A DNA stretch of 41,785 nucleotides from a plasmid. The notes below the pieces were generated by a model, which saw nothing but the letters and a program-made list of their open reading frames with translations, was not told where the DNA came from and ran no database searches. This document shows, one piece after another, positions 4,461 to 33,541 of the stretch. Within the stretch, counting starts at the first letter, position 1. Every line of letters starts with the position of its first letter. The DNA is taken from sequence record NZ_CP090413.1. One strand, 5' to 3'. A program made the translations under genes and the position numbers.

Positions 4461-4525
4461 AAATCCTGTATTAGAAGTCGCCGATGGCGACAACAAAGTC
4501 AAGCTCATAGAATCAAAGCAAAGAG

Positions 4526-6852: not shown

Positions 6853-6992
6853 TATAATATAAACAGAAAAAGGAAGTCCCGCCGAAAACAGGACTTCCCG
6901 CGCAAGCCGCTTCAAAGGCGGTGGCATTAGTTAACTAAACGATAATGTCGTCTCGTAACTCGCCAAAGTTATGATCGGGGCGGCTTTTTTAT
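6853..6992 (+). ncRNA. Candidate small transcript or regulatory RNA between mobA and an IS copy
   Basis: TATAAT at 6853-6858, hairpin ggaagtcc(N10)ggacttcc at 6873-6898, further GC stems, and a terminal gatcggggcggctttttt at 6972-6990. No convincing ORF. Speculative. Confidence 0.2.
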
Positions 6993-7146
6993 TTGTGGTG
7001 CTTGTCGATATAGCTGAGTAGCGCGATTAAAAACGTGCCAAACAGCAACATCAACGAGAGTGTCTGGAAGACGCTCATTGACTGTGAAACCTTCCTGAAG
7101 ATTATTCCATGTTCCCATGGGCCTCACCTCGCAAGGAAAAAGACAG

Positions 7147-14099: not shown

Positions 14100-15449
14100 A
14101 TGGATAAATTTAAAAATATTATTATTGGATTTGGTAAGGCGGGTAAGACATTAGCTAAGTACTTGGCGCAGCATGATGAGACCGTGCTTCTGATCGAACG
14201 GTCAAAACAAATGTATGGAGGGACTTGCATCAATGTTGGCTGCCTACCATCTAAAAATTTAATTTTAAATGGTCAACGTGGCTTAGACTTTACTGCGGCA
14301 GTTAATAAGCGTGGTGAGATGACTAGACAGTTGCGAGACAAAAACTATCACATGGTGGCTGATGAGCCACTAGCAACGGTTTGGAATGGGTCAGCCCGTT
14401 TTATCGACAATTATGTTTTGGCAGTCGTAATGAGTGATGGAACAACTAAGAAGGTGAGAGGTGAACGCATCTTCATTAATACTGGAGCGGTTCCAAATTG
14501 GCCATCAATCCCAGGGCTAGAATTCGGTCAGCGGATTTTTACGTCTAAAGAAGCTATGGAATTGAAGAAACAACCGAAACGACTAGCAATTATTGGCGGC
14601 GGTTATATTGGCCTTGAATTTGCTGGAATGTTTAATTCATTTGGTACGCATGTAACGATTTTCGACCAACATACCAGATTGTTAGAGCGCGAAGATCCTG
14701 ATATTGCGACCGAGGTCGTAACAGATCTGACTGACGCAGGGATCGAGATTAAACCGGAGACTCAACTAACTCAAGTAAAAGATAATGGTGAGAAGGTTAC
14801 GTTATATTATCAACAAGGTGATCAAACTAACACTGCGGAATTTGATGCGGTATTAGTTGCAGTCGGTCGACGACCTAATATAAGTAGTTTAGGACTAGAA
14901 AATACTGATATTGCTTTAACCAATCGCGGTGCTATTCAGGTCGATGATCATTTAAGAACTACAGTACAAAACATTTGGGCTTTAGGTGACGTTAATGGTG
15001 GCCCTATGTTCACTTATGTCTCATTGGATGATTTTCGTATTATCATAGATCAATTGTTTGGTAAGGGGAATCGATCAACGGCTGATCGATCGGTAATACC
15101 AACTGCTTCATTCCTAAATCCACCGCTGGCCAACGTTGGCTTAAATGAACGTCAGGCCAAGAGTGCAGGTTATAACTTTCAAACTTTCAAGCTATCAGTT
15201 AAGGCGATTCCAAAGGCCCGTGTTTTAGAGGATCAACGTGGACTCTATAAGGTAATCATTGATCAAAATACACATTGTATTTTAGGGGCAACTTTGTATG
15301 CCGCTGAGGCTCATGAAACTATTAATCTAATTGCATTAGCGATAAAGGCCAAATTACCCTATGAAAAATTACGCGACATGATCTATACTCACCCAACAAT
15401 GTCTGAAGCCTTGAATGACCTTTTTAAGACTCTGGTTGTGAAAAACTAG
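14100..15449 (+). CDS. Class I pyridine nucleotide-disulfide oxidoreductase (Lpd/Gor-like flavoprotein)
   Basis: FAD Rossmann GxGxxG (IIGFGKAGKT), redox-active disulfide GGTCINVGCLPSK, second NAD(P) GxGxxG (IIGGGYIGLE), and a C-terminal dimerisation region ending HPTMSEALND. Confidence 0.8.
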   Translation: MDKFKNIIIGFGKAGKTLAKYLAQHDETVLLIERSKQMYGGTCINVGCLPSKNLILNGQRGLDFTAAVNKRGEMTRQLRDKNYHMVADEPLATVWNGSARFIDNYVLAVVMSDGTTKKVRGERIFINTGAVPNWPSIPGLEFGQRIFTSKEAMELKKQPKRLAIIGGGYIGLEFAGMFNSFGTHVTIFDQHTRLLEREDPDIATEVVTDLTDAGIEIKPETQLTQVKDNGEKVTLYYQQGDQTNTAEFDAVLVAVGRRPNISSLGLENTDIALTNRGAIQVDDHLRTTVQNIWALGDVNGGPMFTYVSLDDFRIIIDQLFGKGNRSTADRSVIPTASFLNPPLANVGLNERQAKSAGYNFQTFKLSVKAIPKARVLEDQRGLYKVIIDQNTHCILGATLYAAEAHETINLIALAIKAKLPYEKLRDMIYTHPTMSEALNDLFKTLVVKN

Positions 15450-18574: not shown

Positions 18575-18935
18575 TCACTAACCGTCAATAGTGACATCAC
18601 TAGTATTAGCATAGTTATCAAACATATGTTCCCAATGACATAACAAAGGCGCTGTATCGACAGTGAAAAAGCCGGCACAGCGCCTTTTGTTATATTCAAA
18701 TTCTGGTCTCCTCTATAGGATTTCTCATTTTCATATTCATTAGATTGAAAGGCTTATATGGCCGGGACCTGCTTCTCTTTGCACGTTTAGACTCGGTAGC
18801 CAGCTTACTCCAAAATATTCCGTATTAAACAAAACATAAGCTTCAAGAAGAAAAAAGACCAAGTCATAACCGCAAAAACTATTAAAGTCGACTTGACTTT
18901 TATCAAAACAGTCGTACAATGTTTTTAATTAGATT

Positions 18936-18977: not shown

Positions 18978-19001
18978 ATTTAAAATAATTAAGCAAATGA
19001 G

Positions 19002-19613
19002 GTGCGGATTTTGGGAGTCCAAAATATTAAGCGTTCAAGTATCTGGAAGATTCGGTTGTCAACAGCAACGATAACGTTGATTCCTGCAGCAGTCGGAATT
19101 AATTATGTTGCCAAGGCGTTTGCTGAAGGATTAAAATTACCGGTTTGGTTAGGAACGTTGGGAACTTTTCTGGCAAGTATGTTAGCTGGCCCGGTGGCTG
19201 GTGCAATTAGTGGCTTTATTAATAACGTCATTTATGGATTGACGCTATCACCGGTTTCAACGGTCTACGCAATTACTAGTATTGGAATTGGGATTACCGT
19301 TGGGGTCCTCCACGCCAAGGGATGGTTTTCATCCGCAAAGAAAGTATTCGTATCCGCTATTATTATTGCAATTGTATCTGCTGTCATTTCAACACCACTC
19401 AATGTCATTTTTTGGGGTGGCCAAACTGGGATTCCTTGGGGTGATTCAATTTTCGCTGCGATGATCGCTAATCACATTCCGGTTTGGATTTCATCATTTA
19501 CTGATGAATTTATTTTGGACATTTTGGATAAAGTTGTTGTTGCCTACTTGGCATTCTTTATCTATCGGCAACTGCCACAGCGAATGATTCACTTTTTCAG
19601 GGATGATAAATAA
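19002..19613 (+). CDS. ECF transporter substrate-specific (S) component
   Basis: 203 aa, about six hydrophobic helices, GTG start. Followed immediately by EcfT and two EcfA genes. Substrate not assignable from sequence. Confidence 0.65.
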   Translation: MRILGVQNIKRSSIWKIRLSTATITLIPAAVGINYVAKAFAEGLKLPVWLGTLGTFLASMLAGPVAGAISGFINNVIYGLTLSPVSTVYAITSIGIGITVGVLHAKGWFSSAKKVFVSAIIIAIVSAVISTPLNVIFWGGQTGIPWGDSIFAAMIANHIPVWISSFTDEFILDILDKVVVAYLAFFIYRQLPQRMIHFFRDDK

Positions 19614-20407
19614 TGAATGAACCAAATTCAATTTTACAAGGTTCGGTAGCTCACCGTGGCTGGACGTCGGTAGTTGATCCGGTAACGAAATTATTGGTGG
19701 CCCTTGATCTGGCCTTACTAAGCTTTTGTTTCACCAATTTGTTAGTTGAAATTGCGCTTGTATTCGTTGCGCTAGTGATTCTACTGATTTCGAAAGCCGG
19801 CAAGTCGGCGGTTCACGCAATTGAATTCAGCTCATTCTTAATTTTTACAATGCTGATTATTCAGGGCCTCTTTTACAGTCACAATCAGACTCTGTTGGTT
19901 TCAGTGGTCGGGATTCGATTCTATCAAGAAGGGCTGTTGTATGCAGCAACGATAGGGTGTCGAATTTTTGTCATTATTTTAGCAACCAGCTTTTTTATGA
20001 CAACGACTACAGTGTCAGAAAATTCTAAATATTTGGAGCAGGTCGGTCTCTCCTATAAAGCGGTCTATGTATTGATGTCGGTTTGCTATATTTTACCGGA
20101 AATGATGGCCAACATGAAAAAAATTCAAATGGCGCAACGGGCACGTGGCATTAATCAACAGAAAACCATTCTTGAAAAGATTAAATCAATTTTACCAGTG
20201 CTGGTTCCGTTAGTGATCAAAACGCTTGAGCAATCAATGGAACGGTCGATCGCCCTGCGATTACGTGGATTTAATAGTCCCCATCGGGTGGCACTAAAAT
20301 CGGCAAATCTTTATCGGCACGAAATGGTTAATCATCGTGGCTTGAGTTTATTAGCAATTATATTGATTGGGTGGAAATTATGGATAATCGGCAGCAAATT
20401 CATTTAG
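19613..20407 (+). CDS. ecfT: ECF transporter transmembrane (T) component, EcfT/CbiQ family
   Basis: Polytopic, with the two Arg-containing coupling motifs AQRARGIN and IALRLRGF characteristic of EcfT. Confidence 0.75.
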   Translation: MNEPNSILQGSVAHRGWTSVVDPVTKLLVALDLALLSFCFTNLLVEIALVFVALVILLISKAGKSAVHAIEFSSFLIFTMLIIQGLFYSHNQTLLVSVVGIRFYQEGLLYAATIGCRIFVIILATSFFMTTTTVSENSKYLEQVGLSYKAVYVLMSVCYILPEMMANMKKIQMAQRARGINQQKTILEKIKSILPVLVPLVIKTLEQSMERSIALRLRGFNSPHRVALKSANLYRHEMVNHRGLSLLAIILIGWKLWIIGSKFI

Positions 20408-21222
20408 AAAATTTAAGTCTACGTTACCGAGGAATTGAAACATCCGCGCTAAAACATATTTCGGTTGACGCCGAATTTGGGCACGTTATTGGCATCATTG
20501 GTAATCATCATGCAGGTAAAACATCGTTATGTCGGGCATTAGCCGGAATTGTACCAACAATTATTTCAGGTGATGTAACGGGAACCATTCAAGTTGGATC
20601 ATTATCGCCAAATTTGGATTGGCAGAAGTATAATCAGCAGACCGGTGTTGTGCTGCAGAATCCGGCTGGTCAATTGAGTGGGCTTGCCGATACGGTTGCC
20701 GATGAAATTGCGTTTGACCTCATTAATCAAGGAGTTCCAGCCGATCAAATTAAACGGAGAGTCTTCAATGTTGCCGATCAGTTGGGGTTAGGCGACCAAT
20801 TAAATCAATCACCGGGAACGCTGTCTGGCGGACAAAAACAACGGCTGGCAATTGCCACAGCAATCGTAACTGATCCGTCAATTTTGGTTTTAGATGATCC
20901 CACTAGTGAAATGGATCCACTTGGACGTCAGCATTTCTTCAGTTGGTTAGTCAGTGTTGAAAAAAAGACGATCTTCATTGTGTCAAATGAAGTCGACGAT
21001 CTCTGTGAAATTGCTGACCAAATTTGGGTTCTGAAAGCTGGCGAGTTAGTTGCGGCAGGAAAACCGCTGACTGTTTTTAATCATCTGAAGCCGGACTGGC
21101 AGCTTGCTGAACCGACTGTGTTTCGATTGGCAAAATTAATGAAGTGGTCAATCCCTGGTGCAGCAGACGAATTTCCGGTTACCAATCAACAATTAAAGGA
21201 GGCTTATTATGCCGCAAATTGA
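20371..21222 (+). CDS. ecfA: ECF transporter ATPase component EcfA
   Basis: Walker A GNHHAGKTS (atypical), signature LSGGQKQRLAIA, Walker B ILVLDDPTSEMD. Confidence 0.8.
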   Translation: MEIMDNRQQIHLENLSLRYRGIETSALKHISVDAEFGHVIGIIGNHHAGKTSLCRALAGIVPTIISGDVTGTIQVGSLSPNLDWQKYNQQTGVVLQNPAGQLSGLADTVADEIAFDLINQGVPADQIKRRVFNVADQLGLGDQLNQSPGTLSGGQKQRLAIATAIVTDPSILVLDDPTSEMDPLGRQHFFSWLVSVEKKTIFIVSNEVDDLCEIADQIWVLKAGELVAAGKPLTVFNHLKPDWQLAEPTVFRLAKLMKWSIPGAADEFPVTNQQLKEAYYAAN

Positions 21223-22024
21223 AATTAGTGGGTTGCGTTATACTTATCCAGAACATTCATTTCAGGTGGAAATTGATCGGCAATCTTTTGACAGTCCACT
21301 AACCGCAATTGTTGGTCAGAACGGCGCTGGTAAATCAACTTTGTTAAAGTTACTGATCGGATTGATAACACCGCAAGAAGGGACCATTATGATTAATGGC
21401 GTTTCAATAGATGAGTTGAAACCACAGGCAAAGTTGAAACAAATTGGAGTGACATTTCAAGATCCAGATGATCAATTATTTAACGCAACGGTTCAAAAAG
21501 AAGTGGCTTGGGGGCTTTCTCAAATTGAATCGGATCAATTGATGATTAAAAAAGCGGCTGATCAAGCTTTGGTTACGGTTGGATTAGCTGATAAAGCAGC
21601 CGAAAATCCATATGACCTTTCGTTATCTGAACGAAAGTTATTAACGTTTGCAACGGTTTTGGCCATTAATCCTGCAATTTATTTGTTTGACGAGCCGATG
21701 ATGTCGTTAGACTGGCCCAGTCGAAAGCGAATGACTAACATTTTTCATCAACTTGTAAAAAGTGGTCATCAGGTGATCACGATTACTCATGATATGGATT
21801 GGGTAGCGGCTGAATTTTCGACAGTTCACGTGATGGCGCATGGTCAGATTGCCTTTTCCGGGACACCTTCAGCCTTATTTGGTAATTCAGGACTGGTTAA
21901 GCGGGTGGGATTGCTGCCACCAAGAATTATGACGATAACGAGTGCATTAGGTGATCACTCGGTTTATTTAACCCCAGAGGATTACTGCAGGAAGCATAAA
22001 CAAGTTGCCAACAATTTAAATTGA
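21209..22024 (+). CDS. ECF transporter ATPase component EcfA'
   Basis: Walker A GQNGAGKST, degenerate signature LSLSERKLLTFA, Walker B YLFDEPMMSLD. Confidence 0.8.
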   Translation: MPQIEISGLRYTYPEHSFQVEIDRQSFDSPLTAIVGQNGAGKSTLLKLLIGLITPQEGTIMINGVSIDELKPQAKLKQIGVTFQDPDDQLFNATVQKEVAWGLSQIESDQLMIKKAADQALVTVGLADKAAENPYDLSLSERKLLTFATVLAINPAIYLFDEPMMSLDWPSRKRMTNIFHQLVKSGHQVITITHDMDWVAAEFSTVHVMAHGQIAFSGTPSALFGNSGLVKRVGLLPPRIMTITSALGDHSVYLTPEDYCRKHKQVANNLN

Positions 22025-22179
22025 TAAAGATGATAATAGCAACATCTAATTAAAAGTAACAAACATTAAAGAGTGGGACGAAAGGCGGTTACGTGGCAGG
22101 AAGTTGCCTTTTGGCGCACATTTCCGCTCGGTAATAATGATGATAATAGTAGCATTTAATTAAAAGTAATAAACATTAA

Positions 22180-22210
22180 GGATTGGTCATTGTGGTGACC
22201 AATCCTTTTG
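22180..22210 (+). terminator. Rho-independent terminator after the ECF operon
   Basis: ggattggtca-ttgtgg-tgaccaatcc-ttttg: perfect 10-bp stem plus T-run. Confidence 0.6.
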
Positions 22211-22335
22211 CATATAATGAAAATATTAACCTTGAATTTACACTTTAAGTGCAACACTAATTAAATAAAGAATGGCCCATAGCCAAATTTCTGTAAAATG
22301 ATGTTTGCGAAAACAATCATGAAAGGAATTCAGCC

Positions 22336-22554
22336 ATGGACCACTACAAGCATATTACCATAGATGAACGGGAAACCATCTTTTTAATGAGGAATCATGG
22401 AAACTCACTTCTTGAGATTGCCAGCTATACCAAGAAAAGTTACTCAACCATTTCTCGAGAATTAAGTCGTAATTCTACTGGTAAATCCTATTCACCTTCG
22501 AAGGCTCAGGAGAAGTACAAACAGCGCAAAGAGAAGCAGGTCCCGACCATATAA
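22336..22554 (+). pseudogene. IS30-family transposase N-terminal fragment (HTH region only)
   Basis: MDHYKHITIDERETIFLMRNHGNSLLEIASYTKKSYSTISRELSRNS matches the N-terminal HTH of IS30-type transposases. The ORF stops after 72 aa with no catalytic domain downstream. Confidence 0.55.
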
Positions 22555-22774
22555 GCCTTTCAATCTAATATTCCAAAAACAGAAATGGGATTGACTTTAG
22601 ATGATCCTATAGATGCAAATGAACTGTTTATCCCTATTCATGACTGTTAAAGTACACAAACCTCAAGATATTAATAATTTAAGATTGGGAGATATATAAG
22701 CTCTTGGGGTATATTTTTACTAATTTTTCATGAAAGAAAATTGAACAAATTTGTATAGCAATTCTCTTATAAGT

Positions 22775-22791
22775 AAGGCCAATAGGGTATA
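22775..22791. repeat. Half-site AAGGCCAATAGGGTATA (inverted copy of the right-hand site at 27885-27901)
   Basis: A 17/17 reverse-complement match to 27885-27901. Sits at the left edge of the higher-GC block. Confidence 0.6.
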
Positions 22792-22859
22792 GTCTTGAAG
22801 GCTAAACGAAATTAATACTATAGCCTAATCTCAAGAGTAATTGCTATTAGAAAATACGC

Positions 22860-23360
22860 TTCAGGTAATATTACCGGTACACGAATACCATAAATCGTCA
22901 CTGTTGTTGGTCCAAAGTTTGCATGAAGGACCAGTCTCACAAAATTCAATGGTCAATTGTGCCAAGATAGGTGGTCGTTCATCCGCCATTCGAGCGGTTT
23001 CCCGATTGTAGGGACTGGCTGACAATGCTCAAGGGCGAAGTTCTTCTTGTCAGGGTGGTCTTCCCGGGCTAGAAGAAGACTCGTATTTGAAATTGCGCAG
23101 TGGGGTTTCTGTGTGAGTTCAAATCGATGTCCGCCCTGTTCCAGCGTTGTCAGCCGGCCCCGGAAGTCGGACTAGGGCGCGCATCGGCTGACGAACAGGA
23201 ATCCACCAACGACATGTTTCAACTCTATGTGAAACCACAAAAGTTACAATTAGTTGCGGTTTTAGGTGCGTATTACTATGACTTTGGCCGGAGTATGCTA
23301 TGATTAAATACATAGATAATCAGGAAGTTATCATGATTAAAGCTGGGCACTGGGAGGTAC
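22860..23360 (+). promoter_or_regulatory. GC-rich structured 5' leader of the OpuC/EgtU-type transporter operon (candidate riboswitch-like element)
   Basis: About 500 nt with no credible ORF, many GC helices (e.g. cttcttgtcaggg-tggtctt-cccgggctagaagaag) and two half-repeats sharing ggctgac(a/g)a. Ends at gggagg-N6-ATG (23363). Confidence 0.3.
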
Positions 23361-23362
23361 TT

Positions 23363-24886
23363 ATGCAGACATTAATACAGACATTTATGGATCGGCGGAG
23401 TGATTTGCTCACTGCGTTGTGGCAACACTTGGGGATTTCTTTGGCCGCGCTAGTCATTGCAATGGTGATTGCGATTCCACTGGCGATTTGGGTCGTTCGC
23501 CGACCACGGTGGGCCGAGGGGTTATTGCAATTGACCAGTGTTTTGCAGACCATTCCGTCGCTGGCACTATTGGGATTGCTGATTCCGCTAGTCGGTATTG
23601 GCACGGTGCCCGCGGTGATTGCGCTAGTGATTTACGCGTTGTTGCCAATCTTTCAAAATACTTATTTAGGGATCTCGGAAATCGACGCGTCAATTGAAGA
23701 AGCGGCCGATGCGTTTGGAATGTCGCGGATGCGCAAGTTGTTCAAAGTTGAACTGCCGATTGCCTTGCCACAAATCATTGCCGGGATTCGGACCGCCCTA
23801 GTGCTCATTATCGGGACGGCGACGTTAGCGGCTTTGATTGGTGCTGGGGGTCTAGGGACGTTTATCATGCTTGGGATTGACCGTAATGATACGTCGTTGC
23901 TGTTGATTGGGGCCATTTCGTCAGCGCTATTGGCGATTCTGTTGAGTGCACTCGTGCGCTGGTTCCAGACGGCCAAACCCCACCACGCGTTGATCGTGTT
24001 CGTGGGTATTTTGGCGTTACTCGGTGGTGGCGCGTACAGCGTTTATGCCAATCGAGTTGAAACAATTACAATTGCAGGTAAACTCGGGTCCGAGCCTGAC
24101 ATCTTGATCAATATGTACAAACAATTGATTGAAGCTGAAGACGACCACATTCACGTGACCTTGAAACCGAACTTTGGTAAGACAACCTTCTTATTCAGCG
24201 CTCTGAAGAATAATCAGATCGACATTTACCCAGAATTCACTGGTTCCGTATTGGAAACTTTGGTGAAGGGCAATAATCCGGCCAGTCAAACGGCTAATCA
24301 GACTTATCAGTTAGCCAAAAAGCGGCTAGCTAAGCAGGAACAGATGACTTACTTGAAGCCGATGCAGTACAACAATACGTACGCCCTGGCCGTCACTAAG
24401 AAGTTCCAACAAGAACACCATTTGAAGACCATCAGCGATTTAACACAAGTCGAATCGATCCTCAAACCAGGGATGACGCTCGAATTTATCGACCGCGATG
24501 ATGGCTTGAAGGGAATCAAGAAGACGTATGGCTTGGATGTTACGGCCAAATCGATGGAACCGGCATTGCGCTATGAAGCGATTAGCAAGGGGAAAATCAA
24601 TCTGGTGGACGCCTACGCAACGGATAGCGAATTACGACAATATAACTTGGCGCTGCTGAAGGATGATAAGCACTTCTTCCCGACGTATCAAGGGGCGCCA
24701 CTCATGAAGACCAGCTTTGCTAACAAACACCCGAAAGTCGTCCAAGCATTGAATAAGTTAGCTGACAAGATTTCCGAAACCGATATGCAAGAGATGAACT
24801 ATGAAGTCAATGTCAAAAAGAAATCGGCTTCCACAGTCGCACATAACTATCTCGTCAAACACGGCTTGTTAAAGGAGGAACGCTAA
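23363..24886 (+). CDS. Fused ABC permease and substrate-binding protein, OpuCB/OpuCC (EgtU)-type compatible-solute transporter
   Basis: N-terminal approximately 215 aa is a six-TM permease (EAA-like loop LPIALPQIIAGIRTALVLIIGTATLAALIGAGGLG). The C-terminal approximately 290 aa is a periplasmic-type SBD. Start chosen at MQTLIQTF (RBS gggagg); the track ORF begins at 23300. Confidence 0.8.
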   Translation: MQTLIQTFMDRRSDLLTALWQHLGISLAALVIAMVIAIPLAIWVVRRPRWAEGLLQLTSVLQTIPSLALLGLLIPLVGIGTVPAVIALVIYALLPIFQNTYLGISEIDASIEEAADAFGMSRMRKLFKVELPIALPQIIAGIRTALVLIIGTATLAALIGAGGLGTFIMLGIDRNDTSLLLIGAISSALLAILLSALVRWFQTAKPHHALIVFVGILALLGGGAYSVYANRVETITIAGKLGSEPDILINMYKQLIEAEDDHIHVTLKPNFGKTTFLFSALKNNQIDIYPEFTGSVLETLVKGNNPASQTANQTYQLAKKRLAKQEQMTYLKPMQYNNTYALAVTKKFQQEHHLKTISDLTQVESILKPGMTLEFIDRDDGLKGIKKTYGLDVTAKSMEPALRYEAISKGKINLVDAYATDSELRQYNLALLKDDKHFFPTYQGAPLMKTSFANKHPKVVQALNKLADKISETDMQEMNYEVNVKKKSASTVAHNYLVKHGLLKEER

Positions 24887-25857
24887 TGACAACGGCAATT
24901 GAATTTCAGCACGTCCAAAAAGACTTTAATGGGCAAACCGTGATTCCCGATTTGAATCTAATGGTCGATCAGGGTGAACTGTTCGTCCTAGTGGGCACCT
25001 CTGGCAGTGGCAAGACGACGTCGCTTAAAATGATTAATCGTTTGGAACCCTTAACGGCCGGAAAAATCCTGGTCAACGGGGCCGACACCACCACGGTACC
25101 AGTACGGGATTTGCGGTGGCAGATGGGGTACGTCTTGCAACAAATCGCTCTATTTCCAACTATGACGGTAGCACAAAATATCGCGGTGATTTCCGAGATG
25201 AAGGGGACGGCGAAGAAGACTATCAATCAAACGATTGACGAGTTATTGACGGAAGTCGGCCTGGACCCCCAAGAATACCGCGACCGGATGCCATCAGAAT
25301 TATCTGGTGGTGAACAACAACGAATCGGTATTTTGCGGGCAATCGCAGCGCAACCCGATATTGTGTTGATGGATGAACCGTTCAGTGCGCTGGACCCAAT
25401 TTCGCGGCAACAATTACAAGATCTAGTCCTAGGGTTACACGCCCGCTATCATAATACGATCGTCTTTGTGACCCATGATATGAACGAGGCGCTCAAACTA
25501 GGCGACCGCATTGGGGTCATGCAACATGGACAGCTCGTCCAAGTCGACACACCAACGGCACTGGCCCAACATCCGGTCAATGACTTCGTGCGGGACTTCT
25601 TCGGTGCGAGTCGTGCGAAAAACGTGTATGACGTTTACGTGGGCCGCGTCGGGCTCGTCCAAGGCTATCTCAAAACTGCGCCGGACGTGGCGGATGGCCG
25701 TATTCAGTCACTAGATATTCAGGCGACGTTGCGGACGGCCTTTACCGCCTTGACCGACCATGATTACTTGGCGGTCACGGAAGATGATCACGTGGTGGGT
25801 TACCTGGACCGACAACGGGTCGTCGCTTATCTGAGTCAGCATGAAGAAGTATCTTAG
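24886..25857 (+). CDS. ABC ATPase with C-terminal CBS-like module (OpuCA/EgtV-type)
   Basis: Walker A GTSGSGKTT, signature LSGGEQQRIGILRA, Walker B IVLMDEPFSALD, Q-loop and H-loop VTHD. An approximately 90-aa C-terminal extension remains. Confidence 0.85.
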   Translation: MTTAIEFQHVQKDFNGQTVIPDLNLMVDQGELFVLVGTSGSGKTTSLKMINRLEPLTAGKILVNGADTTTVPVRDLRWQMGYVLQQIALFPTMTVAQNIAVISEMKGTAKKTINQTIDELLTEVGLDPQEYRDRMPSELSGGEQQRIGILRAIAAQPDIVLMDEPFSALDPISRQQLQDLVLGLHARYHNTIVFVTHDMNEALKLGDRIGVMQHGQLVQVDTPTALAQHPVNDFVRDFFGASRAKNVYDVYVGRVGLVQGYLKTAPDVADGRIQSLDIQATLRTAFTALTDHDYLAVTEDDHVVGYLDRQRVVAYLSQHEEVS

Positions 25858-25952
25858 TCGTCAACTAGCCCGGATTACTTTAGACTAGGTGCTAGTTAGT
25901 GAACAATAATTTGATCATGAGAATTTAGGAGTCAATTGAGGAGGTCTCAGTA

Positions 25953-27284
25953 ATGACGGAACAATATGATGTCGTTGTAATTGGTGGTGGTCCGGCTGGT
26001 AACGCGATAGCAAGTGGCTTACAGGCGCAAGGTAAGTCGGTGCTGATCGTTGAAGCTGACTTATGGGGTGGTACTTGTCCGAACCGCGGGTGTGACCCGA
26101 AAAAAATCTTGTTGAGCGCCGTTGAAGCCCAACAGGCAGCCCAACATCTCCAGCATCAAGGCTTAACAGGAACACCGACGATTGATTGGCCGGCCCTGAT
26201 GGCGCATAAACGAGGCTATACCGATGGCATTAATGATGGCACGCTTAAGGGACTGCAGCACCAAGGCATCGCGACCTTACATGGTCAGGCCCATTTTCAA
26301 AACGACGGCCAGCTAGCAGTCGGTGACCAAGTCGTAAGTGCGACGGATTACGTGATTGCGACCGGACAACGCCCAGCAATTTTGCCGATTACCGGACAAG
26401 AATATTTCAAGACTAGTACGGACTTTTTAGATTTGGATGAGATGCCTAAGCGCGTGACTTTCGTGGGTGGGGGCTATGTTGGCTTCGAGCTGGCAGCGAT
26501 TGCGAATGCTGCCGGCGCCGATGTCCACGTGATTCATCATAATGACCGGCCACTCAAAGCCTTCGATGCGGACCTCGTCCAAGATTTGATGGCGACCATG
26601 ACTGCGGACGGTGTCACTTTTGACTTGAACACGGACCTCCAAGCCATCGAACAGACCGACGACGGCCTGCAATTGACGGCACCTGACTTTGAGCTGACGA
26701 CGGACCTCGTGATTAGTTCAGCGGGGCGGATTCCGAATGTGGACCAGTTAGGACTCGAAAACGTCGGTGTCACGTTTAACCGTCACGGGATTCAAGTGAA
26801 CGATCGACTACAGACGGCTAATCCGCATATTTACGCGATTGGTGACGTGAGCGATACGCCCGTACCTAAGTTAACGCCAGTAGCGGGTTACGAAGCGCGT
26901 TACTTGGTTCAACAACTGACCCAGCCGGGAGCGGCAATCACGTATCCCGTCATCCCGACCCAAGTCTTTGCTGTACCTAAGCTAGCACAAGTGGGCCTTA
27001 GTGCGACGGATGCGGCTGACCAGCCGGATAAATATCGCGTGAATACGCTGGATATGACCAAATGGTTCTCTTATTACCGTTTCGGCGCACGACAAGCACA
27101 GGCCAAGGTCATTATTGATCAGGCTAGCGGGCAAGTCGTCGGTGCGACACTGTTGAGTGATGTCGCGGATGAAATGATCAATTACCTGACGTTACTGATT
27201 GAAAAACACGTCACTTTAGCCCAATTACAACAACTCGTATTAGCCTACCCAACACCAGCCAGTGACCTGCAGTATCTGTACTAG
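25953..27284 (+). CDS. Glutathione-reductase-like class I pyridine nucleotide-disulfide oxidoreductase
   Basis: VVVIGGGPAGNA (FAD), redox CxxxxC GGTCPNRGCDPKK, second Rossmann VGGGYVGFE, and a dimerisation domain. Paralogous to 14100-15449. Confidence 0.8.
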   Translation: MTEQYDVVVIGGGPAGNAIASGLQAQGKSVLIVEADLWGGTCPNRGCDPKKILLSAVEAQQAAQHLQHQGLTGTPTIDWPALMAHKRGYTDGINDGTLKGLQHQGIATLHGQAHFQNDGQLAVGDQVVSATDYVIATGQRPAILPITGQEYFKTSTDFLDLDEMPKRVTFVGGGYVGFELAAIANAAGADVHVIHHNDRPLKAFDADLVQDLMATMTADGVTFDLNTDLQAIEQTDDGLQLTAPDFELTTDLVISSAGRIPNVDQLGLENVGVTFNRHGIQVNDRLQTANPHIYAIGDVSDTPVPKLTPVAGYEARYLVQQLTQPGAAITYPVIPTQVFAVPKLAQVGLSATDAADQPDKYRVNTLDMTKWFSYYRFGARQAQAKVIIDQASGQVVGATLLSDVADEMINYLTLLIEKHVTLAQLQQLVLAYPTPASDLQYLY

Positions 27285-27875
27285 CTAGCGAGAACTGGCA
27301 ACTGGTTGAAACACGGTCATGAATCGTGATTGAAACGGGCTAGTTCTTAAGTTCAAAAGCGGCCAGCTGAAAACTGCTGGAAAAAGTGCGTGTTCGTGTA
27401 AACTTGCAGTAATAGATTCGTCCTATTCCGGCTTCCAGGCATTCTGGGCAATAGCCGTGACGTGGTGGACACAGATTTAAGCCGAAACCCACGTCTTAAA
27501 TACTGGTCTTCCACGTTGCCCGCGATATTGCCGGAACGTGCTCGAGCCAGACTGGGACTTCCGGTTAGCTACGCCAGAACGCCAAGCGGAAATGCGCCGC
27601 TTAACGCTCTAGCTAGGCTAATCCTCAGTCCCAACCCGTCTGGACCTCACACTCTGAAAGTCACTTGGCCTTGCCCAGAATACCTTCCAGCCGGGATGGT
27701 ATTCGAAAGGCGGACATGTGTGGACTCAACTTTTAAAGAGTTGTTCGTTCACGTTTAGTAAACAGTCATTTTGATACCTAGCTGTAAAACTAGCCGTCAA
27801 TAAGCGCCATTCCGATATACTCGTATTGGCGAAAACTCAATATTACTGAAAGGGGCATGGATTTTCTTTAGTCGT

Positions 27876-27899
27876 CCAATAAGGTATACCCTATTGGCC
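27876..27899. other. Imperfect palindrome, putative crossover or binding site of the adjacent serine recombinase
   Basis: ccaataAGGTATACCctattgg(cc): two inverted half-sites around GGTATACC, 70 bp upstream of the recombinase start. The same half-site recurs inverted at 22775-22791. Confidence 0.4.
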
Positions 27900-27967
27900 T
27901 TTTCTATTTCTGTGCTATACTAGGAATTATAAATGTTCATTAGAACTGTCCAAAAGGAGAATTAAAA

Positions 27968-28552
27968 ATGGCTAAAATCGGTTATGCACGTGTGAGTTCC
28001 AAGGAGCAACATTTAGATCGACAGTTAGCGGCTTTAAAAGACGTTGATAAATTATTTGCGGATAAATTAAGTGGGGCTAACACTAAGCGGCCAGAACTGC
28101 AAAAAATGCTGGCCTATATTCGCGAGGGTGATATTGTCCTGGTCACTGAATTAGATCGCTTAGGCAGAAACAACCAGGATTTAACTAAGATCATGAACAC
28201 CATTCAAAATAAGGGGGCCACCCTAGATGTGTTAAATTTGCCGTCCATGACGGGAATTGCTGATCCTAACTTGCGTCAACTGATGACTAACCTCATCATT
28301 GAACTGTATAAGTATCAGGCGGAAAGCGAACGTAAGCGGATCATCGAACGTCAGCAACAAGGGATTGCCTTAGCTAAGCAGCAGGGTAAATATCATGGGC
28401 GCAAACCCCAATACACCCAAGACGATCCCCGCTTGCAACATGCTTTTAAGCTTTACCAGGCAGGCATGAGTGACATTGATGTGGCTCGAAATACTGGGAT
28501 TAAACGGACGACCTTTATCAGATATCGCAAAAAGTTTAATATAAAAAGATGA
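27968..28552 (+). CDS. Serine recombinase (resolvase/invertase family)
   Basis: MAKIGYARVSSKEQ (catalytic Ser region), DRLGRN motif, and a C-terminal HTH GIKRTTFIRYRKKF. 194 aa, RBS aaaggaga. Confidence 0.85.
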   Translation: MAKIGYARVSSKEQHLDRQLAALKDVDKLFADKLSGANTKRPELQKMLAYIREGDIVLVTELDRLGRNNQDLTKIMNTIQNKGATLDVLNLPSMTGIADPNLRQLMTNLIIELYKYQAESERKRIIERQQQGIALAKQQGKYHGRKPQYTQDDPRLQHAFKLYQAGMSDIDVARNTGIKRTTFIRYRKKFNIKR

Positions 28553-28684
28553 GACTTATATGTCAGTGACGTGTACCCCCAAAATTAAAAACCGTTTTTA
28601 TAAGCAGCAAAACTATTTTGAGAAAATGATGGGAATCATGTTAGAGTGGTATCATTTATTAATCGGAATGCAAACAACTGTGCT
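28303..28684. repeat. Direct repeat copy 1 (3' half of recombinase gene plus about 130 bp downstream)
   Basis: About 93% identical to 33031-33399 apart from a 17-bp indel. Confidence 0.75.
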
Positions 28685-28870
28685 TCTTACCATAGTTTTT
28701 CAGGAATAGCGGTTTTGCTAATTGATGACTTAATTCGAAGTAAGGACCTGCCGATAAATCAACATCCTACTATTTCATTTGGTGTTAATTTCTTTCTCTC
28801 GAATATAACCTATGCGTCAATTATAAAGTCTGGTCTACTGCAACGAGCTTTCTTGGCCCCTAAATCTAAA

Positions 28871-28919
28871 GAGAGCGTGTATTGAAATCCAAGGATTTCG
28901 ATACACGCTCTCGCTTTTT
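28871..28919 (+). terminator. Rho-independent terminator
   Basis: gagagcgtgtat-(18-nt loop, itself palindromic)-atacacgctctc-gcttttta: perfect 12-bp stem. Confidence 0.55.
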
Positions 28920-29144
28920 ACTACGTCTCCTTCTAGCAGAGATTAGAAATGAAAACAAAAATCCACTCGGCGCGACGAAGACGGCGGGTGAAAGTAGAAG
29001 GCCGGATTGGGCCTATCCCAGGGAAAGCAAGGCCTTGTAAAGGTCGTTGACCTTCGTGGGCATGTAGTCGTTCATCATCATGATCTGGTGGATGTCCCCT
29101 GGGAGTAGGTAGAGCCAGTGGCGAAAATCATGGAAACCATCCTT

Positions 29145-29771
29145 TCATTCTTGCGTATCTTCGGAAAGCCGGAAGGTATCGACGAACTGCTTGTATTCCG
29201 AGCTGGAAGTTCCAAAGGATTCGAGGCCATAGAGGCCAGCGGACGAGTAAACGACCTCTCGACGCATGATCACCGAGGGGTCCTCGCTATCGTGACCGGT
29301 GTAGGAAATGGCCATATGCCCGTCCACGGTGGTGAAGGAATACTTGTCAATCTGCAGAAGACGAGCGACATTGGTCAAAACCTTACGTTTCTGCGCGTCA
29401 TTGAACCCCTTGGAGTCCTCGACTTGCTTCCGAGTGAATTTGGTGACGGACACAGCGTAGTTGATGTGATCCTTGTCATTAACCGTCGAATAGCGGGCAT
29501 AAGCGCCGGTGGGATCCTTATAGGTGTCCTTCTCCGGAACGCCCGGGAAATAGACGGAATAGCCCAGATCCTTGGACGTGAACTTCTTCCAGTCCTGGGG
29601 GGCAGTGACGGAGGAAGTGGCTTTGTTCGCCGATGGGGCAGTCGACTGGGAGGAACCGCAGGCGGCCAGACATGTCGTGAAAGCCATCGTTGCTATGACA
29701 GCGGAAATCCGCCTGAAGAACCTTTTCATATCAAACCTATTTTTCTTTCTTGTCGTTTCTTGCTTTTTCAT
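29145..29771 (-). CDS. Lipoprotein of unknown function
   Basis: The signal peptide MKRFFRRISAVIATMAFTTCLAACGSS contains the lipobox LAAC. The probable start is the internal Met (MKRFF). GC-richer than its surroundings. The first 14 codons of the track ORF are in frame with the upstream toxin remnant. Confidence 0.6.
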   Translation of the reverse strand: MKKQETTRKKNRFDMKRFFRRISAVIATMAFTTCLAACGSSQSTAPSANKATSSVTAPQDWKKFTSKDLGYSVYFPGVPEKDTYKDPTGAYARYSTVNDKDHINYAVSVTKFTRKQVEDSKGFNDAQKRKVLTNVARLLQIDKYSFTTVDGHMAISYTGHDSEDPSVIMRREVVYSSAGLYGLESFGTSSSEYKQFVDTFRLSEDTQE

Positions 29772-29981
29772 TGTAACACCTTCTAAAGTATGAGGATAAA
29801 AATAATCTGGGATGGTTTTATCTTCAATTAAACACTGAATAATATATTTCCAAGGACTCCGCTTTTGATCATCAAGTTCTTGAGGTAGTGAACTTTTAAA
29901 TATTGAACGCCACTTGGGGTCTTGTCGCCGCTTTTTGAACTGTTTTTTAAAAGCTTTGGTATATTTAATTACTCTTGCCGT
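29772..29981 (-). pseudogene. RelE/YafQ-family toxin remnant (N-terminal approximately 70 codons, no start codon, C-terminus replaced)
   Basis: Minus-strand frame directly after the antitoxin stop reads TARVIKYTKAFKKQFKKRRQDPKWRSIFKSSLPQELDDQKRSPWKYIIQCLIEDKTIPDYFYPHTLEG. This parallels YafQ (IEYSGQYSKDVKLAQKR...LPAVYKDHPLQG) and then runs in frame into the lipoprotein ORF. Confidence 0.45.
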
Positions 29982-30275
29982 TTATTTTGAAGACTCCAAT
30001 GCGTCATCGGAGCTAAGCAATTGATCTAATTCTTTAAGGTTACGGGCTTCGGATAGCTTTTCTTTTCCAGATAGATCATCAATAACTTCTTGAATCGAAT
30101 TTTTTAACTGCCGATTAGGGATTGAATAATATTTAGGTAAACCATCATGAGCAACTGTTGTTAATGTCATGCGCATAAAATCAGAAATTGTTAGACCATG
30201 ATTAGCCAATACGTCTTTGGCTTTACTTTTAATAATTCCGTCAATTCGAGCTTCAATTCTTGCCATTCTCATCAC
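29982..30275 (-). CDS. RelB/DinJ-family antitoxin (orphan)
   Basis: 97 aa. GLTISDFMRMTLTTVAHDGLP matches the DinJ/RelB RHH N-terminus and the C-terminal acidic tail is typical. The cognate toxin downstream is truncated. Confidence 0.7.
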   Translation of the reverse strand: MMRMARIEARIDGIIKSKAKDVLANHGLTISDFMRMTLTTVAHDGLPKYYSIPNRQLKNSIQEVIDDLSGKEKLSEARNLKELDQLLSSDDALESSK

Positions 30276-30420
30276 CTCAGTAATATTGTACGTTATCTGG
30301 CGTACAAATCCAACCGTATTTAACTAGGTTAAACTCTTTACAGAACGAGCAAAGATTCTTACATTAAAGACAACCGTACAGCGTACAATAGCCTCATATC
30401 CCCGAGGTACCTTTTTTAAT

Positions 30421-32265
30421 TCAACTTTTTAATGACTTACGATCTGTCAACAAAGCAATCGGCGACAGAATCAATACAATCACCGCGCCTACTAAGTAGG
30501 TATGACTGAAGGCCTGGCTGATTTGTTGGTTCTTAGTATACTTAATTTTTCTCAAAGCTGTCGTTAAAGCTTCTTTTTGTGCCAATTGTTTGAGACCTAC
30601 TAACAATTTTTTCTGACCCTGGCTTATTTTCTGATTACCCAAATTAATTCTTTGAGAAGCTACTGACAGTTTAGATATAGCGGTATTTTGATTTTCTAAC
30701 TTGGTTAAGGTAAGTGCTAGTTGCTGGTTACCCGCTTTTAAGTTGTCAGTAGCTAGTGCTAACTTCTTCTGGGCTTGGTAGACCTGGTAAAGATCGGTTC
30801 CCTTTTGGGGCTGTGGTAAATCAACTCGAGATTTGGCCGCCTGTTTAAGGGCACGTCTTAGGTTCGTCTGTTCATTTTTAGTTGTTAATTGGGCTGATCC
30901 AGTAGTGGAAAATAGGCTATTCAATTGTTGATGAGCCACTTTGTTTACTTTGGGTGATAATTGCTGTCGATCAACGATTTGAATGGCATCTTGATGTATA
31001 TGCTGCTTAGCTGTATTGACATTATTATCAAGGACCGTCACTAGAATTGCAATTCCTAAACAGGTGCCAATTTGACGCGCTGCGTTAACAATTCCCGAAC
31101 CAATCCCACTTTTATTTTTTGGCAAATGTTTAACCGAGGCCACTAACGAAACCGAAGAGAACCCAAAACCAACACCGTTAATCACCAGAAAAGTAATGAT
31201 AACAGCTTTAGGCGTTGTGGTGGTGATAAATGACAAGAGGAGTAAACTAGCTGCCATGACTAAGAGACCAATCAAAGTAACCGGAACTGCGCCAACTTGA
31301 TCAAATAACTTAGTTCCCAAAGGCATCGCTACCATGATTGTTAAGGAAACTGGAACAATAATTAGGGCTGCATGTAACGCTGTATCATTCAGAACGTCTT
31401 GTAAAAAATAATTTAAAATCAGGGTGGGACTAACTAACGCAAAGCCAGTTAAAAAGTAAACTAAACTAGAAGCAGTTAAGGTTTTTTCACGGAACAAATC
31501 TAATTCAAGTAGCGGGTGTTTGACTTTGCTTTCGATAAAAATGAACAATCCAATAGCTAATACGCCGCCAATGAGTGTTCCTAAGATGATGCCCGATTGC
31601 CAACCATATTGGCGGCCTTCTAGTAGGCCAAAGGTTAAACCACCCAAGCCTAGTGTTAAAAGAATCGTTCCTGGTAAATCAATTCTCCCCGCCAAGGATT
31701 CGTCACATGATTCCCTTACCCCCATAGCTATAATTAGAAAGGCTACAATGGTTAAGGGGACATTAATGCCGAATACCCAGCGCCAAGAAGCATATTTAAT
31801 AATCACGCCACCAATCGGTGGCCCCCCGGCAGCGGCTAAAGCCGTTACCGCGCCCACAACGCTAGCAATTTTGGACATATACGCTTTGCCAAATATTTCG
31901 ATTCCCATTGGTAAGACAATCGGGGTGATAATGGCACCGCCTAATCCTTGAAAAAATCGAAAAGCAATCAATTCTGGTAACGACGTTGCCAGCATACAAG
32001 CCGCTGAAAAGCCGCCAAATAAGGCTAATCCTAATAACATAATTTTTTTACGACCATAACGATCAGCAATCTTTGAACCCGTGATCATAAACACGGCTAA
32101 GGCTAACGTATAGATGGTGGCAACCCAACTTGTATCAGTTAGACTGGCATCGAAATGGGTCATAATTTGGGGTAAAGCAATGTTGACGATGGTACTGTCT
32201 AAGGTACCCATAAACATCGCAATGGTTAGCCCGATGAAACTGATAATTTTAGTAACTTTTGACAT
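30421..32265 (-). CDS. MFS transporter, DHA2 (14-TMS drug:H+ antiporter) family, with an approximately 170-aa Q/L/K-rich insertion before the last TM
   Basis: Conserved MFS motif region (GSKIADRYGRKK), many TM helices, and a long predicted coiled-coil insert (KQHIHQDAIQ...ALRKIKYTKNQQ) followed by a final hydrophobic helix. Confidence 0.8.
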   Translation of the reverse strand: MSKVTKIISFIGLTIAMFMGTLDSTIVNIALPQIMTHFDASLTDTSWVATIYTLALAVFMITGSKIADRYGRKKIMLLGLALFGGFSAACMLATSLPELIAFRFFQGLGGAIITPIVLPMGIEIFGKAYMSKIASVVGAVTALAAAGGPPIGGVIIKYASWRWVFGINVPLTIVAFLIIAMGVRESCDESLAGRIDLPGTILLTLGLGGLTFGLLEGRQYGWQSGIILGTLIGGVLAIGLFIFIESKVKHPLLELDLFREKTLTASSLVYFLTGFALVSPTLILNYFLQDVLNDTALHAALIIVPVSLTIMVAMPLGTKLFDQVGAVPVTLIGLLVMAASLLLLSFITTTTPKAVIITFLVINGVGFGFSSVSLVASVKHLPKNKSGIGSGIVNAARQIGTCLGIAILVTVLDNNVNTAKQHIHQDAIQIVDRQQLSPKVNKVAHQQLNSLFSTTGSAQLTTKNEQTNLRRALKQAAKSRVDLPQPQKGTDLYQVYQAQKKLALATDNLKAGNQQLALTLTKLENQNTAISKLSVASQRINLGNQKISQGQKKLLVGLKQLAQKEALTTALRKIKYTKNQQISQAFSHTYLVGAVIVLILSPIALLTDRKSLKS

Positions 32266-32429
32266 CTATCAAGCGCTCCTTTCGGTAACAGATGAATATA
32301 AAGGAAACATTTGTTACCTTTATTTGCAGTCTTTAGTATAATTAGTCCTAAGCATTAAAACAATCCTTATTGGCTAAGTGCTACAGATTGCTATAATTTG
32401 TTACCGATAATAGAGGAGATGTTAATAAA

Positions 32430-33005
32430 ATGAACGGCAAGCAGCGAATGGCGGAGCAGTCTAAGCAATGGTTATGTGACGCCCTTATAAATTTAATGAC
32501 GAAAGAGAACTTTCAGGATATTTCTATTACTGAAATTGCCCAAACCGCTGAATTATCGCGAAAAACATTCTATCATTCTTTTAAAAATAAAGAAGCGGTC
32601 ATTAATTACCTGTGTGATCAGTTGTTCGATCAGTACTTTGAACAATTACTCCAGCAGAAACCGCAGGTAGGGGAACTGATGTTAAAAACTACTTTTGATA
32701 TTTTTTTAAATTTTTGGTGGCGAAAACGGGATTTAATTCAATTATTGATCCGCCAAGGCTTATTTGATCACATGAATGAAATTTGGCAGCAAAAAGCAAT
32801 CCCTCGTTATCAACAGTTTGCAGCTCCTTGGCATGTTCATGGCACTCCTACCCAAGTGAATTATGTGATGGCTTTTCAACTAGGTGGTTTAACTAATATT
32901 CTACGTGTCTGGTTAGGACAAGATCAGCCTGAGCCACCAGAACAAATTAAGGATCTAATGTTGTTGGCTGCTCAGCAATTAGCTGATAGTTTAAATACAA
33001 ATTAG
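32430..33005 (+). CDS. TetR/AcrR-family transcriptional regulator (divergent from the MFS gene)
   Basis: N-terminal HTH (ISITEIAQTAELSRKTFYHSFKNKE), 191 aa. Classic divergent regulator-pump arrangement. Confidence 0.75.
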   Translation: MNGKQRMAEQSKQWLCDALINLMTKENFQDISITEIAQTAELSRKTFYHSFKNKEAVINYLCDQLFDQYFEQLLQQKPQVGELMLKTTFDIFLNFWWRKRDLIQLLIRQGLFDHMNEIWQQKAIPRYQQFAAPWHVHGTPTQVNYVMAFQLGGLTNILRVWLGQDQPEPPEQIKDLMLLAAQQLADSLNTN

Positions 33006-33030
33006 ATTAGTTAGACAGAAACAATCAGGA

Positions 33031-33399
33031 CTCTATAAGTATCAGGCCGAAAGTGAACGTAAACGAATCATTGAGCGCCAGCAGCAAGGAATTGCCTTAG
33101 CTAAGCGACAGGGTAAATATCATGGGCGCAAACCCCAATACACCCAAGATGATCCCCGCCTGCAACATGCTTTTAAGCTTTACCAGGCAGGCATGAGTGA
33201 CATTGATGTGACTCGAAATACCGGGATTAAACGGACGACCTTTATCAGATATCGCAAAAAGTTTAATATAAAAAGATGAGACTTATATGTCAGATAAATT
33301 AAAAACCGTTTTTTATGAGCAGCAAAACTATTTTGAGAAAATGATGGGAATCATGTTAGAGTGGTATCATTTATTAATCGGAATGCAAACAACTGTGCT
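33031..33399 (+). pseudogene. Direct repeat copy 2: 5'-truncated recombinase gene relic
   Basis: Encodes ...LYKYQAESERKRIIERQQQGIALAKRQGKYHGRKPQYTQDDPRLQHAFKLYQAGMSDIDVTRNTGIKRTTFIRYRKKFNIKR* with no N-terminal catalytic half. Confidence 0.75.
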
Positions 33400-33541
33400 C
33401 AACATAGTTCTGGAAGTGTTTGTTGTTCCATTCTTCGATTGCATGCTTAGTAGCTTTCGATTCATCGTACACGTTTTTATTTTCAAGATTGTATTTGAAA
33501 ATAAAATGTTACCTTTTACCCTAGAAAGGTAACGCCAAAAG

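Follow-up and report, generated by a model that had tools for sequence, protein, structure and literature searches.

The DNA analysed here is a 41,785-nt window (the whole stretch under study) from plasmid record NZ_CP090413.1, a plasmid of the RepA_N/MobA type in which the region of interest is 99.9% identical to plasmid pHN1 of Ligilactobacillus salivarius CECT 5713 and 99% identical to pSF118-44 of strain UCC118. The locus contains a gene for a Sin-like small serine recombinase, a palindromic site of the crossover type upstream of it, and – between this site and a left flank holding an ECF-transporter cluster and an IS30 helix-turn-helix fragment – a block of transporter and reductase genes that is missing from plasmids of other species (Table 1). 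A 17-nt sequence, AAGGCCAATAGGGTATA, lies at either edge of the block in inverted orientation, and an earlier note on this DNA took the two copies to be a pair of sites bounding a segment that had probably been captured and might also be inverted by the recombinase. Here, we compare the locus with its relatives, and argue that the two copies belong to a single palindrome that was split by the incoming block, probably through exchange catalysed by the resolvase.

Table 1. Coordinates of the features of the resolvase locus and its surroundings in the window
Feature	Coordinates	Strand	Remarks
Orphan outer arm	22775-22791	+	exact 17-mer; arm GGCCAATAGGGTA at 22777-22789, plus the shared central TATA
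Left inner partner, non-cognate (pseudo) arm	22790-22802	+	TAGTCTTGAAGGC; 6/12 mismatches to the arm consensus
Inserted block, 5,093 bp	22792-27884	+	mosaic; missing from empty-site plasmids
Element L, structured non-coding, ~295 nt	22916-23210		fold z
EgtU-type fused ABC permease/substrate-binding protein	23300-24886	+	BPD_transp_1 and OpuAC domains
ProV-type ABC ATPase of the transporter	24886-25857	+	profile matches
Glutathione-reductase-like class I pyridine-nucleotide disulfide oxidoreductase	25953-27284	+	profile and structure matches
Element R, structured non-coding, ~450 nt	27345-27791		fold z, plasmid relatives
Predicted functional site I	27874-27899	+	inner arm B* GTCCAATAAGGTA at 27874-27886; outer arm TACCCTATTGGCC at 27887-27899
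Second 17-mer copy, outer arm plus central TATA	27885-27901	-	exact match
Promoter-like site	27894-27921	+	-35 TTGGCC inside the right arm; extended -10 TGcTATACT
Candidate accessory site	27935-27959	+	arm-like repeats GTTCATTAGAAC and GTCCAAAAGGAG, head-to-tail, 13 bp apart
Sin-like small serine recombinase (resolvase), 194 aa	27968-28552	+	Resolvase and HTH_7 domains
3' fragment of a second recombinase copy	33030-33399	+	direct repeat (94%) of 28303-28684; families D2/D3

Exact matches to the 17-mer are confined to these two places in the whole window, in the inverted orientation that the earlier note reported, and no third copy is present at up to 2 mismatches, where 0.01 would be expected by chance; the pair was also recovered in a repeat search of the window (inverted pair I21). 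The right copy had further been described as a full palindrome 70 bp from the recombinase gene. The dyad and the spacing both hold, although the dyad is imperfect: its 22-bp core, CCAATAAGGTATACCCTATTGG, has one mismatch in each 11-nt arm, and stops 70 bp short of the start codon at 27968, an ATG. The centre of symmetry falls between 22789 and 22790 on the left and between 27886 and 27887 on the right, and at both places the outer arm has 0 mismatches relative to the arm consensus derived from the 75 loci described below. The inner arms are of very different quality. B*, on the right, differs from the consensus at 2 of 12 positions and is in the correct register and orientation; 13-mers as good occur at just three of 83,544 window positions, these being B* itself and the two perfect arms. 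About 4.5% of the window's 13-mers match the consensus as well as the inner partner on the left does, and the left joint is without an accessory region. The disparity between 2/12 and 6/12 mismatches argues that a complete, slightly imperfect site I is still attached to the gene, together with the accessory tract and the promoter, and that the left 17-mer has been orphaned.

The product of the 27968 gene has the catalytic domain with its serine and the C-terminal helix-turn-helix of the small serine recombinases, with matches to PF00239 (2.1e-34) and PF02796 (6e-06) that both pass the cut-offs. Its best solved relative is Sin (2r0q, E=7e-29), to which 184 residues align, including the YARVSS and DRLGRN motifs. 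A genome scan found 80 loci with recombinases that are 94-99% identical, spread over dozens of Lactobacillaceae genera, and 75 of these could be used to analyse conservation. The palindrome lies at the same distance before the start codon in all 75, with about 80 bp separating its centre from the ATG, which agrees with the proposal of the earlier note that the right-hand dyad is a crossover-type site belonging to the recombinase next to it. Columns between -13, where the left arm has its outer edge, and the ribosome-binding site and start codon each hold close to 2 bits of information, and those upstream of -13 less than 0.5 bit, with 46 different contexts represented there; in most of the 544 matching plasmids in PLSDB, the homology likewise starts where the palindrome does on its left side. 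The consensus for site I is GGCCA-N-TAGGGTA/TACCCTA-N-TGGCC (the slash marks the centre), and as a rule the palindrome is intact, each arm having 0-1 mismatch. Each arm has a single variable position, at which left and right assort independently (chi-square p=0.95; 28 of the 75 sites are symmetric), as fits a free reassortment of arms.

The conserved non-coding tract extends for about 86 bp, from -13 to about +73, and is near-invariant between +14 and +73. It includes a promoter-like sequence, also near-invariant, whose extended -10 is placed sixteen bases downstream of a -35 within the right arm, and a putative promoter overlapping the site could allow autoregulation of the recombinase gene. 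Closer to the gene are two arm-like repeats that form a candidate accessory site; they are weak matches to the position weight matrix (PWM) and occur on one strand only, the second overlaps the ribosome-binding site, and the conservation of +14 to +73 could also reflect the promoter and the ribosome-binding site. We regard the region upstream of 27968 as the putative res of a Sin-like plasmid resolvase, with site I followed by about 60 bp of accessory or promoter DNA and then the gene.

The organization before arrival of the block can be seen in other plasmids, since the same left flank is joined straight to the recombinase gene in plasmids of L. gasseri, L. paragasseri, and L. plantarum. A block-free junction of the window was reconstructed by joining 22300-22791 to 27889-28700, which places AAGGCCAATAGGGTATACCCTATTGGCCTT between 22760-22774 and 27902-27920, and eight complete Lactobacillus/Lactiplantibacillus plasmids align to it without a gap or break, with identities of about 95%. 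The intact joint is the 30-bp palindrome AAGGCCAATAGGGTA/TACCCTATTGGCCTT. In pHL70_1 of L. gasseri it is a perfect 30-bp palindrome (...TTATAAGTAAGGCCAATAGGGTATACCCTATTGGCCTTTTTTATTTCTG...), and in pMWLp-12C (locus L002) the same palindrome has two changes in the outer right arm; the joint of loci L001 and L002 reads ...TTATAAGTAAGGCCAATAGGGTATACCCTATTGGCCTT..., and in these two loci identity to the window is 97% left of the joint and 93-96% right of it. The arm that is an orphan in the window is contiguous with its other arm in the empty-site loci L001, L002, and L010. That the block is an insertion, in line with the capture proposed in the earlier note, is supported, the block being missing from at least eight complete plasmids and its joints lying at the centre of the dyad.

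The block-bearing form is confined to L. salivarius plasmids. One of these is a megaplasmid (NZ_CP102520, L004), in which a shortened block at 4000-7740 retains the left joint, with the orphan arm next to the block, and has lost the counterparts of 22360-22768 on the left and of everything beyond about 26373 on the right. Two transposase genes flank this copy, and the block has therefore moved on within a larger unit bounded by insertion sequences (IS).

These comparisons lead us to read the two 17-mers as the two outer arms of one palindrome, split at its dyad centre by the block, and not as two sites that bound it; the appearance of an inverted repeat would follow from the symmetry of the original palindrome. 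We consider a Hin/Gin-type switch, in which the recombinase flips a segment lying between two inverted sites, to be very improbable here. Exact 17-nt copies in inverted orientation beside a serine recombinase gene do suggest such a segment, and insertions in staphylococcal res sites can create invertible segments (PMC3276174), but the left copy is half a site whose partner arm has 6/12 mismatches and would serve poorly as a substrate for inversion, the right site is the sole complete dyad, the closest solved relative of the enzyme is a resolvase, and inversion would switch no obvious pairing of promoter and gene. Furthermore, the block has the same orientation in three complete L. salivarius plasmids in PLSDB and in ten metagenome contigs that contain both joints (among them L003 and L088-L097), as well as in the megaplasmid derivative, and none of the loci examined has an inverted joint. 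The inversion envisaged in the earlier note is therefore not supported, and a programmed switch is unlikely because there is one complete site only and the enzyme is resolvase-like.

The empty sites could also be interpreted with the reverse polarity, such that the block-bearing form is ancestral and the intact palindromes elsewhere arose by resolvase-mediated excision between the joints. The reaction is reversible in principle, and excision would regenerate exactly the perfect palindrome of locus L001. Nonetheless, intact palindromes are the rule in the 75 loci with their 46 upstream contexts and do not need the block to account for them, the block-bearing form is restricted to L. salivarius plasmids and its operon is foreign in ancestry and composition, and the left joint – lacking a second arm and accessory sites – would make a poor partner for resolution. 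We therefore think that excision is an unlikely explanation.

A 4-bp TATA is all that is repeated at the two joints. It is itself a palindrome and overlies the crossover core, and both joints lie within these four central base pairs. Serine recombinases cleave both strands of site I at its central dinucleotide, with a stagger of 2 nt (PMC2428073), and the position of the joints in the central TATA supports exchange at site I, although a 4-bp target duplication and a conservative exchange would leave the same repeat here. Within the block there are no recombinase or transposase genes, its three genes coding for the transporter, its ATPase, and the reductase, and no significant terminal inverted repeats were found by end-to-end local alignment against shuffles (p=0.084). 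One sequence located 31 nt in from the left end, TTCAGGTAATATT, appeared by eye to match the right end, and was rejected on the same test. We similarly rejected the possibilities that the left end of the block is a diverged res or that the left flank is a mirrored res (global z=-1.1; local p=0.57 with the 17-mer excluded).

Insertion of a res-targeting transposon – such as Tn552, which inserts in the Sin res, or members of the Tn5053 family, which do so at other res sites – with TATA as a 4-bp target duplication and with the transposition genes subsequently lost, would also leave a block within the palindrome. The res palindromes of staphylococcal plasmids are documented hot spots for transposons, including truncated derivatives without transposase genes (PMC3276174), and TATA is indeed present at both joints. 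However, the block has neither significant terminal repeats nor a transposase gene, and no Pfam remnant was found in its non-coding ends at E<=1; the documented res hunters produce duplications of 5-10 bp, and it would be left unexplained why B* is so close to the consensus. This explanation therefore seems to us quite improbable. A break at the centre of the palindrome – by hairpin processing or abortive cleavage by the resolvase – followed by illegitimate or microhomology-mediated joining to foreign DNA is another unlikely course of events: a perfect 30-bp palindrome is a plausible place for a break, TATA microhomology is available at both joints, and the left inner arm is not site-like, but neither the 10/12 arm match in exact register at the right inner end nor the free reassortment of arms across the family is explained. 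B* in exact register is what exchange by a recombinase predicts, and neither transposition nor random breakage does so.

We therefore favour exchange at site I, catalysed by the resolvase, as the probable means by which the mosaic cargo block was captured. The ancestral backbone would have had an intact palindrome directly linking the flank with the ECF-transporter cluster and the IS30 fragment to the resolvase gene, and the resolvase would have made a double-strand cut at the central AT of site I and exchanged strands with a partner DNA that had one good arm (now at 27874-27886) and one non-cognate arm (now at 22790-22802). The partner may have been a circular segment with the junction ...TCCAATAAGGTA/TAGTCTTGAAGG..., which simply integrated. 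Alternatively, site I of the backbone may have fused with a pseudo-site on a co-resident plasmid carrying the block upstream of a res of its own, with ordinary resolution between the two full res sites following; this second route is the more likely because only one unusual event is needed. By either route, the imported arm and a native arm would form a complete site I at the gene, and the orphan arm would be stranded 5.1 kb away. Exchange may be ongoing. Eleven metagenome contigs contain the right joint, and the last 250 bp of the block in these are 97.6-100% identical to the window, whereas in eight of them identity drops to 85-96% over the first 80 bp beyond the centre and is 92-97% in the gene; we take this step in identity at the centre as evidence of continuing exchange at the site.

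Several considerations weigh against this reading. Resolvases that depend on accessory sites strongly prefer intramolecular resolution of two full res sites, and fusion with a partner having a single good arm should be rare. Catalysis of the joints by the resolvase is suggested by comparative evidence, and the shared TATA would fit a 4-bp target duplication or microhomology-mediated joining as well. The junction expected of a donor or circle, TCCAATAAGGTATAGTCTTGAAGG, is present neither in the loci examined nor in the metagenome collection, and the leftmost part of the block (22792-22915) is carried by L. salivarius plasmids only. Metagenome contigs can be chimeric, though the sequence shared at the switch point is short. 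Finally, the res and the 5' part of the recombinase gene are 94-95% identical to L002, below the 97% of the left flank, and the right arm may have arrived with the donor and not be half of the ancestral palindrome. The gradients of identity to pMWLp-12C are ambiguous as to whether the right arm and the 5' part of the gene are ancestral or donor-derived; under either history, the left joint would be at the centre of site I.

A broader proposal is that the res/resolvase module, nearly identical across dozens of Lactobacillaceae genera, does more than resolve multimers and acts as a general platform for gene capture, in which cargo with a single arm-like sequence integrates upstream of the resolvase gene at site I, in a manner loosely like that of an integron but by means of a serine resolvase. 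This would explain both the 46 unrelated upstream contexts in the 75 loci and the free reassortment of arms, but we consider it doubtful. No other orphan arms were found at the 80 recombinase loci, for which the flanks cover 1.5 kb only.

The block itself is a mosaic of separate parts. Its genes match the cargo described in the earlier note, an OpuC/EgtU-type transporter and a glutathione-reductase-like enzyme, and the binding domain of the importer groups with EgtUC and not with OpuC (E=5e-92 against the Streptococcus pneumoniae EgtUC structures, and about 1e-43 against OpuCC of the OpuC type); the importer is putatively of the ergothioneine type, and scores stayed below every NCBIfam equivalog cut-off. 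The best solved relative of the reductase is 8k40, an unnamed NAD(P)/FAD oxidoreductase, and its closest relatives are chromosomal in Lactiplantibacillus (88% amino acid identity). A database search for the donor lineage, suggested in the earlier note, found relatives of the operon (23226-27283) on the Lactiplantibacillus paraplantarum chromosome, at 77.7% DNA identity, and on Leuconostoc plasmids, at about 78%, where they lie beside a different recombinase and an IS6 element. The cargo operon is thus probably foreign, with a Lactiplantibacillus-like ancestry. The outermost ~124 bp on the left (22792-22915) and ~90 bp on the right have matches in L. salivarius plasmids only.

The genes for the importer, the ATPase, and the reductase are kept together on the Lactiplantibacillus chromosome, on the Leuconostoc plasmids, and in the window at 23300-27284 (the operon spans 3424-7332 in L111 and 3136-7043 in L005), and this linkage across replicons suggests that the import of low-molecular-weight thiols is functionally paired with the action of the disulfide reductase. 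In Leuconostoc carnosum pKLC1 there is a thioredoxin gene about 1.5 kb upstream of the operon, beyond a recombinase gene. The window has a second pyridine-nucleotide disulfide oxidoreductase gene outside the block, at 14100-15449.

The G+C content of the block is 49.6% (50.2% for 22900-27750), compared with 39.9% for the window overall, 40.2% for the left flank (19000-22774), and 41.2% for the right flank (27902-33000). The edges of the block are AT-rich, however, with 34.3% G+C in the first 108 bp and 38.8% in the last 134 bp, and the step is offset inward from the sites by about 110 bp on the left and about 130 bp on the right. The earlier note had described a rise to about 52% coinciding with the sites, and had proposed a windowed calculation as a check; the rise is real, but it is nearer to 50%, and it begins and ends inside the sites, within a block that is itself composite.

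The two structured non-coding regions of the earlier note are confirmed and lie towards the ends of the block, both folding far below shuffled sequences (z=-3.85 for 22900-23299; z=-6.1 on the plus strand and -5.85 on the minus strand for 27285-27800). Two L. plantarum plasmids have copies of element L, 88% and 78% identical and with sharp boundaries of homology, which lie in unannotated DNA immediately downstream of thioredoxin or oligopeptide-binding genes; 11 of its 107 predicted pairs retain pairing through double-sided changes, in a comparison of three sequences only. Element R has a long closing stem (27425-27451 with 27671-27697), and copies 79-84% identical are found in unannotated DNA of 16 plasmids of the L. 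plantarum group, without the central ~150 nt (27515-27661) of the window's version. It could be a structured RNA or a DNA element resembling a single-strand origin. Neither element is part of the transporter operon, and their relatives are solely in plasmid DNA of the L. plantarum group; a similarity of the elements to each other or to other DNA in the window was sought and not found. Rfam has no matches in the block at gathering thresholds (searched over the whole window) nor in the two non-coding ends at E<=1, and open frames of at least 45 aa in those ends give nothing credible in Pfam at E<=1.

The neighbourhood of the locus has undergone other rearrangements. The fragment of a second recombinase copy marks a separate insertion beside the same gene, with a 4.7-kb segment between the repeats; this segment (28303-33029) contains the recombinase 3' end and genes for a PsbP-like lipoprotein, RelB, an MFS pump, and TetR. 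Relative to pMWLp-12C, identity is 97.0% in the left flank, 93.8% in res, and 95.2% in the 5' part of the recombinase gene, then 87.9% in its 3' part (28303-28677), 96.8% in the downstream copy (33030-33404), and 98.9% in the DNA beyond, and the full-length gene looks like a hybrid of a 95% 5' part and an 88% 3' part. An L. fermentum plasmid has an arrangement of which 28303-33029 is a circular permutation, which suggests that the segment entered separately, in a Campbell-type integration through homologous recombination inside the recombinase gene.

Left of the block, 44-nt inverted repeats (98%) at 18739-18782 and 22526-22569 bracket the ECF-transporter cluster, the right copy being at the 3' end of the IS30 helix-turn-helix fragment (ORF 22336-22554). 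In contig L010, 18739-19257 is reversed and joined directly to 22526-22791, and the cluster has therefore been inverted or rearranged between the 44-nt repeats in a relative. Farther out, 920-bp inverted repeats at 7146-8062 and 38163-39080 (748 nt at 100% and 173 nt at 99%) have imperfect terminal repeats of about 27 bp and only short broken open reading frames, and are probably decayed IS copies; about 30 kb lies between them, including the block. The window also contains an intact-looking fragment of a Mutator-family (IS256-type) transposase at 11157-12026. At 6855-6946, Rfam gives a match to the type I antitoxin RNA RatA (53.5 bits against a gathering score of 49). At 15586-18471 is a gene for a 961-aa LPXTG-type surface protein with four 270-bp tandem repeats (15772-16881) that are 84-93% identical; metagenome copies have Cna_B/SpaA domains and range from 544 to 1052 aa, suggesting variation in repeat number.

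Sin, from the multiresistance plasmids of Staphylococcus aureus, is the closest parallel in several respects. Both are small plasmid-borne serine recombinases without a link to a transposase, both have a palindromic site I distal to the gene, and the possible head-to-tail accessory repeat seen here would have its counterpart in the Sin res. In the latter, which is about 86 bp long, an inverted-repeat site I is separated from a head-to-tail site II by a spacer to which a bending protein binds (PMC2428073); the conserved tract in the Lactobacillaceae loci is also about 86 bp. The Sin res palindrome, too, is an insertion hot spot at which repeated res arms are left behind, and insertions in it can leave inverted res repeats in staphylococcal plasmids (PMC3276174). 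The systems differ in the sequence of the site, in that the insertion described here is not of the Tn552 type, and in site II and the need for a DNA-bending protein, both of which are only putative here.

The Tn3/gamma-delta resolvases are like the present system in that crossover occurs at the centre of site I, site I is distal and the accessory sites proximal to the gene, and the site overlaps a promoter (predicted here). Recombination at res is known to yield mosaic elements in the Tn3 family, as in Tn21- and Tn1721-type mosaics, with homology breaking at site I. In contrast, the present system lacks a transposase partner and terminal repeats of 38 bp, its tract could not accommodate three dimer sites (which take 114 bp in Tn3), and sequence similarity is weaker (E about 1e-20). 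The Hin, Gin, and Cin invertases belong to the same superfamily (E about 3e-20 for Gin-type structures) and also have a dyad crossover site near the gene, but they depend on an enhancer and on a pair of complete sites in inverted orientation, whereas this locus has one complete site and an orphan arm.

A full-text search of a literature library by plasmid name, core sequence, and topic gave no description of this Lactobacillaceae site and no biochemistry for the resolvase family. The event is of a known kind – ordinary plasmid shuffling at a resolvase site, mechanistically unsurprising, with a resolvase family that is uncharacterised – and it does not overturn current understanding. It does provide a before-and-after case, precise to the nucleotide, of cargo exchange at a resolvase crossover site in plasmids of food and gut lactobacilli, and a probable site I consensus. 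The resolvase concerned is 94-99% identical among many genera and occurs in over 500 sequenced plasmids, and the consensus is useful for annotating plasmid mosaics, recognising the boundaries of modules, and designing stable vectors. The putative ergothioneine-type importer and the disulfide reductase in the block may matter for the fitness of L. salivarius under oxidative stress in the gut.

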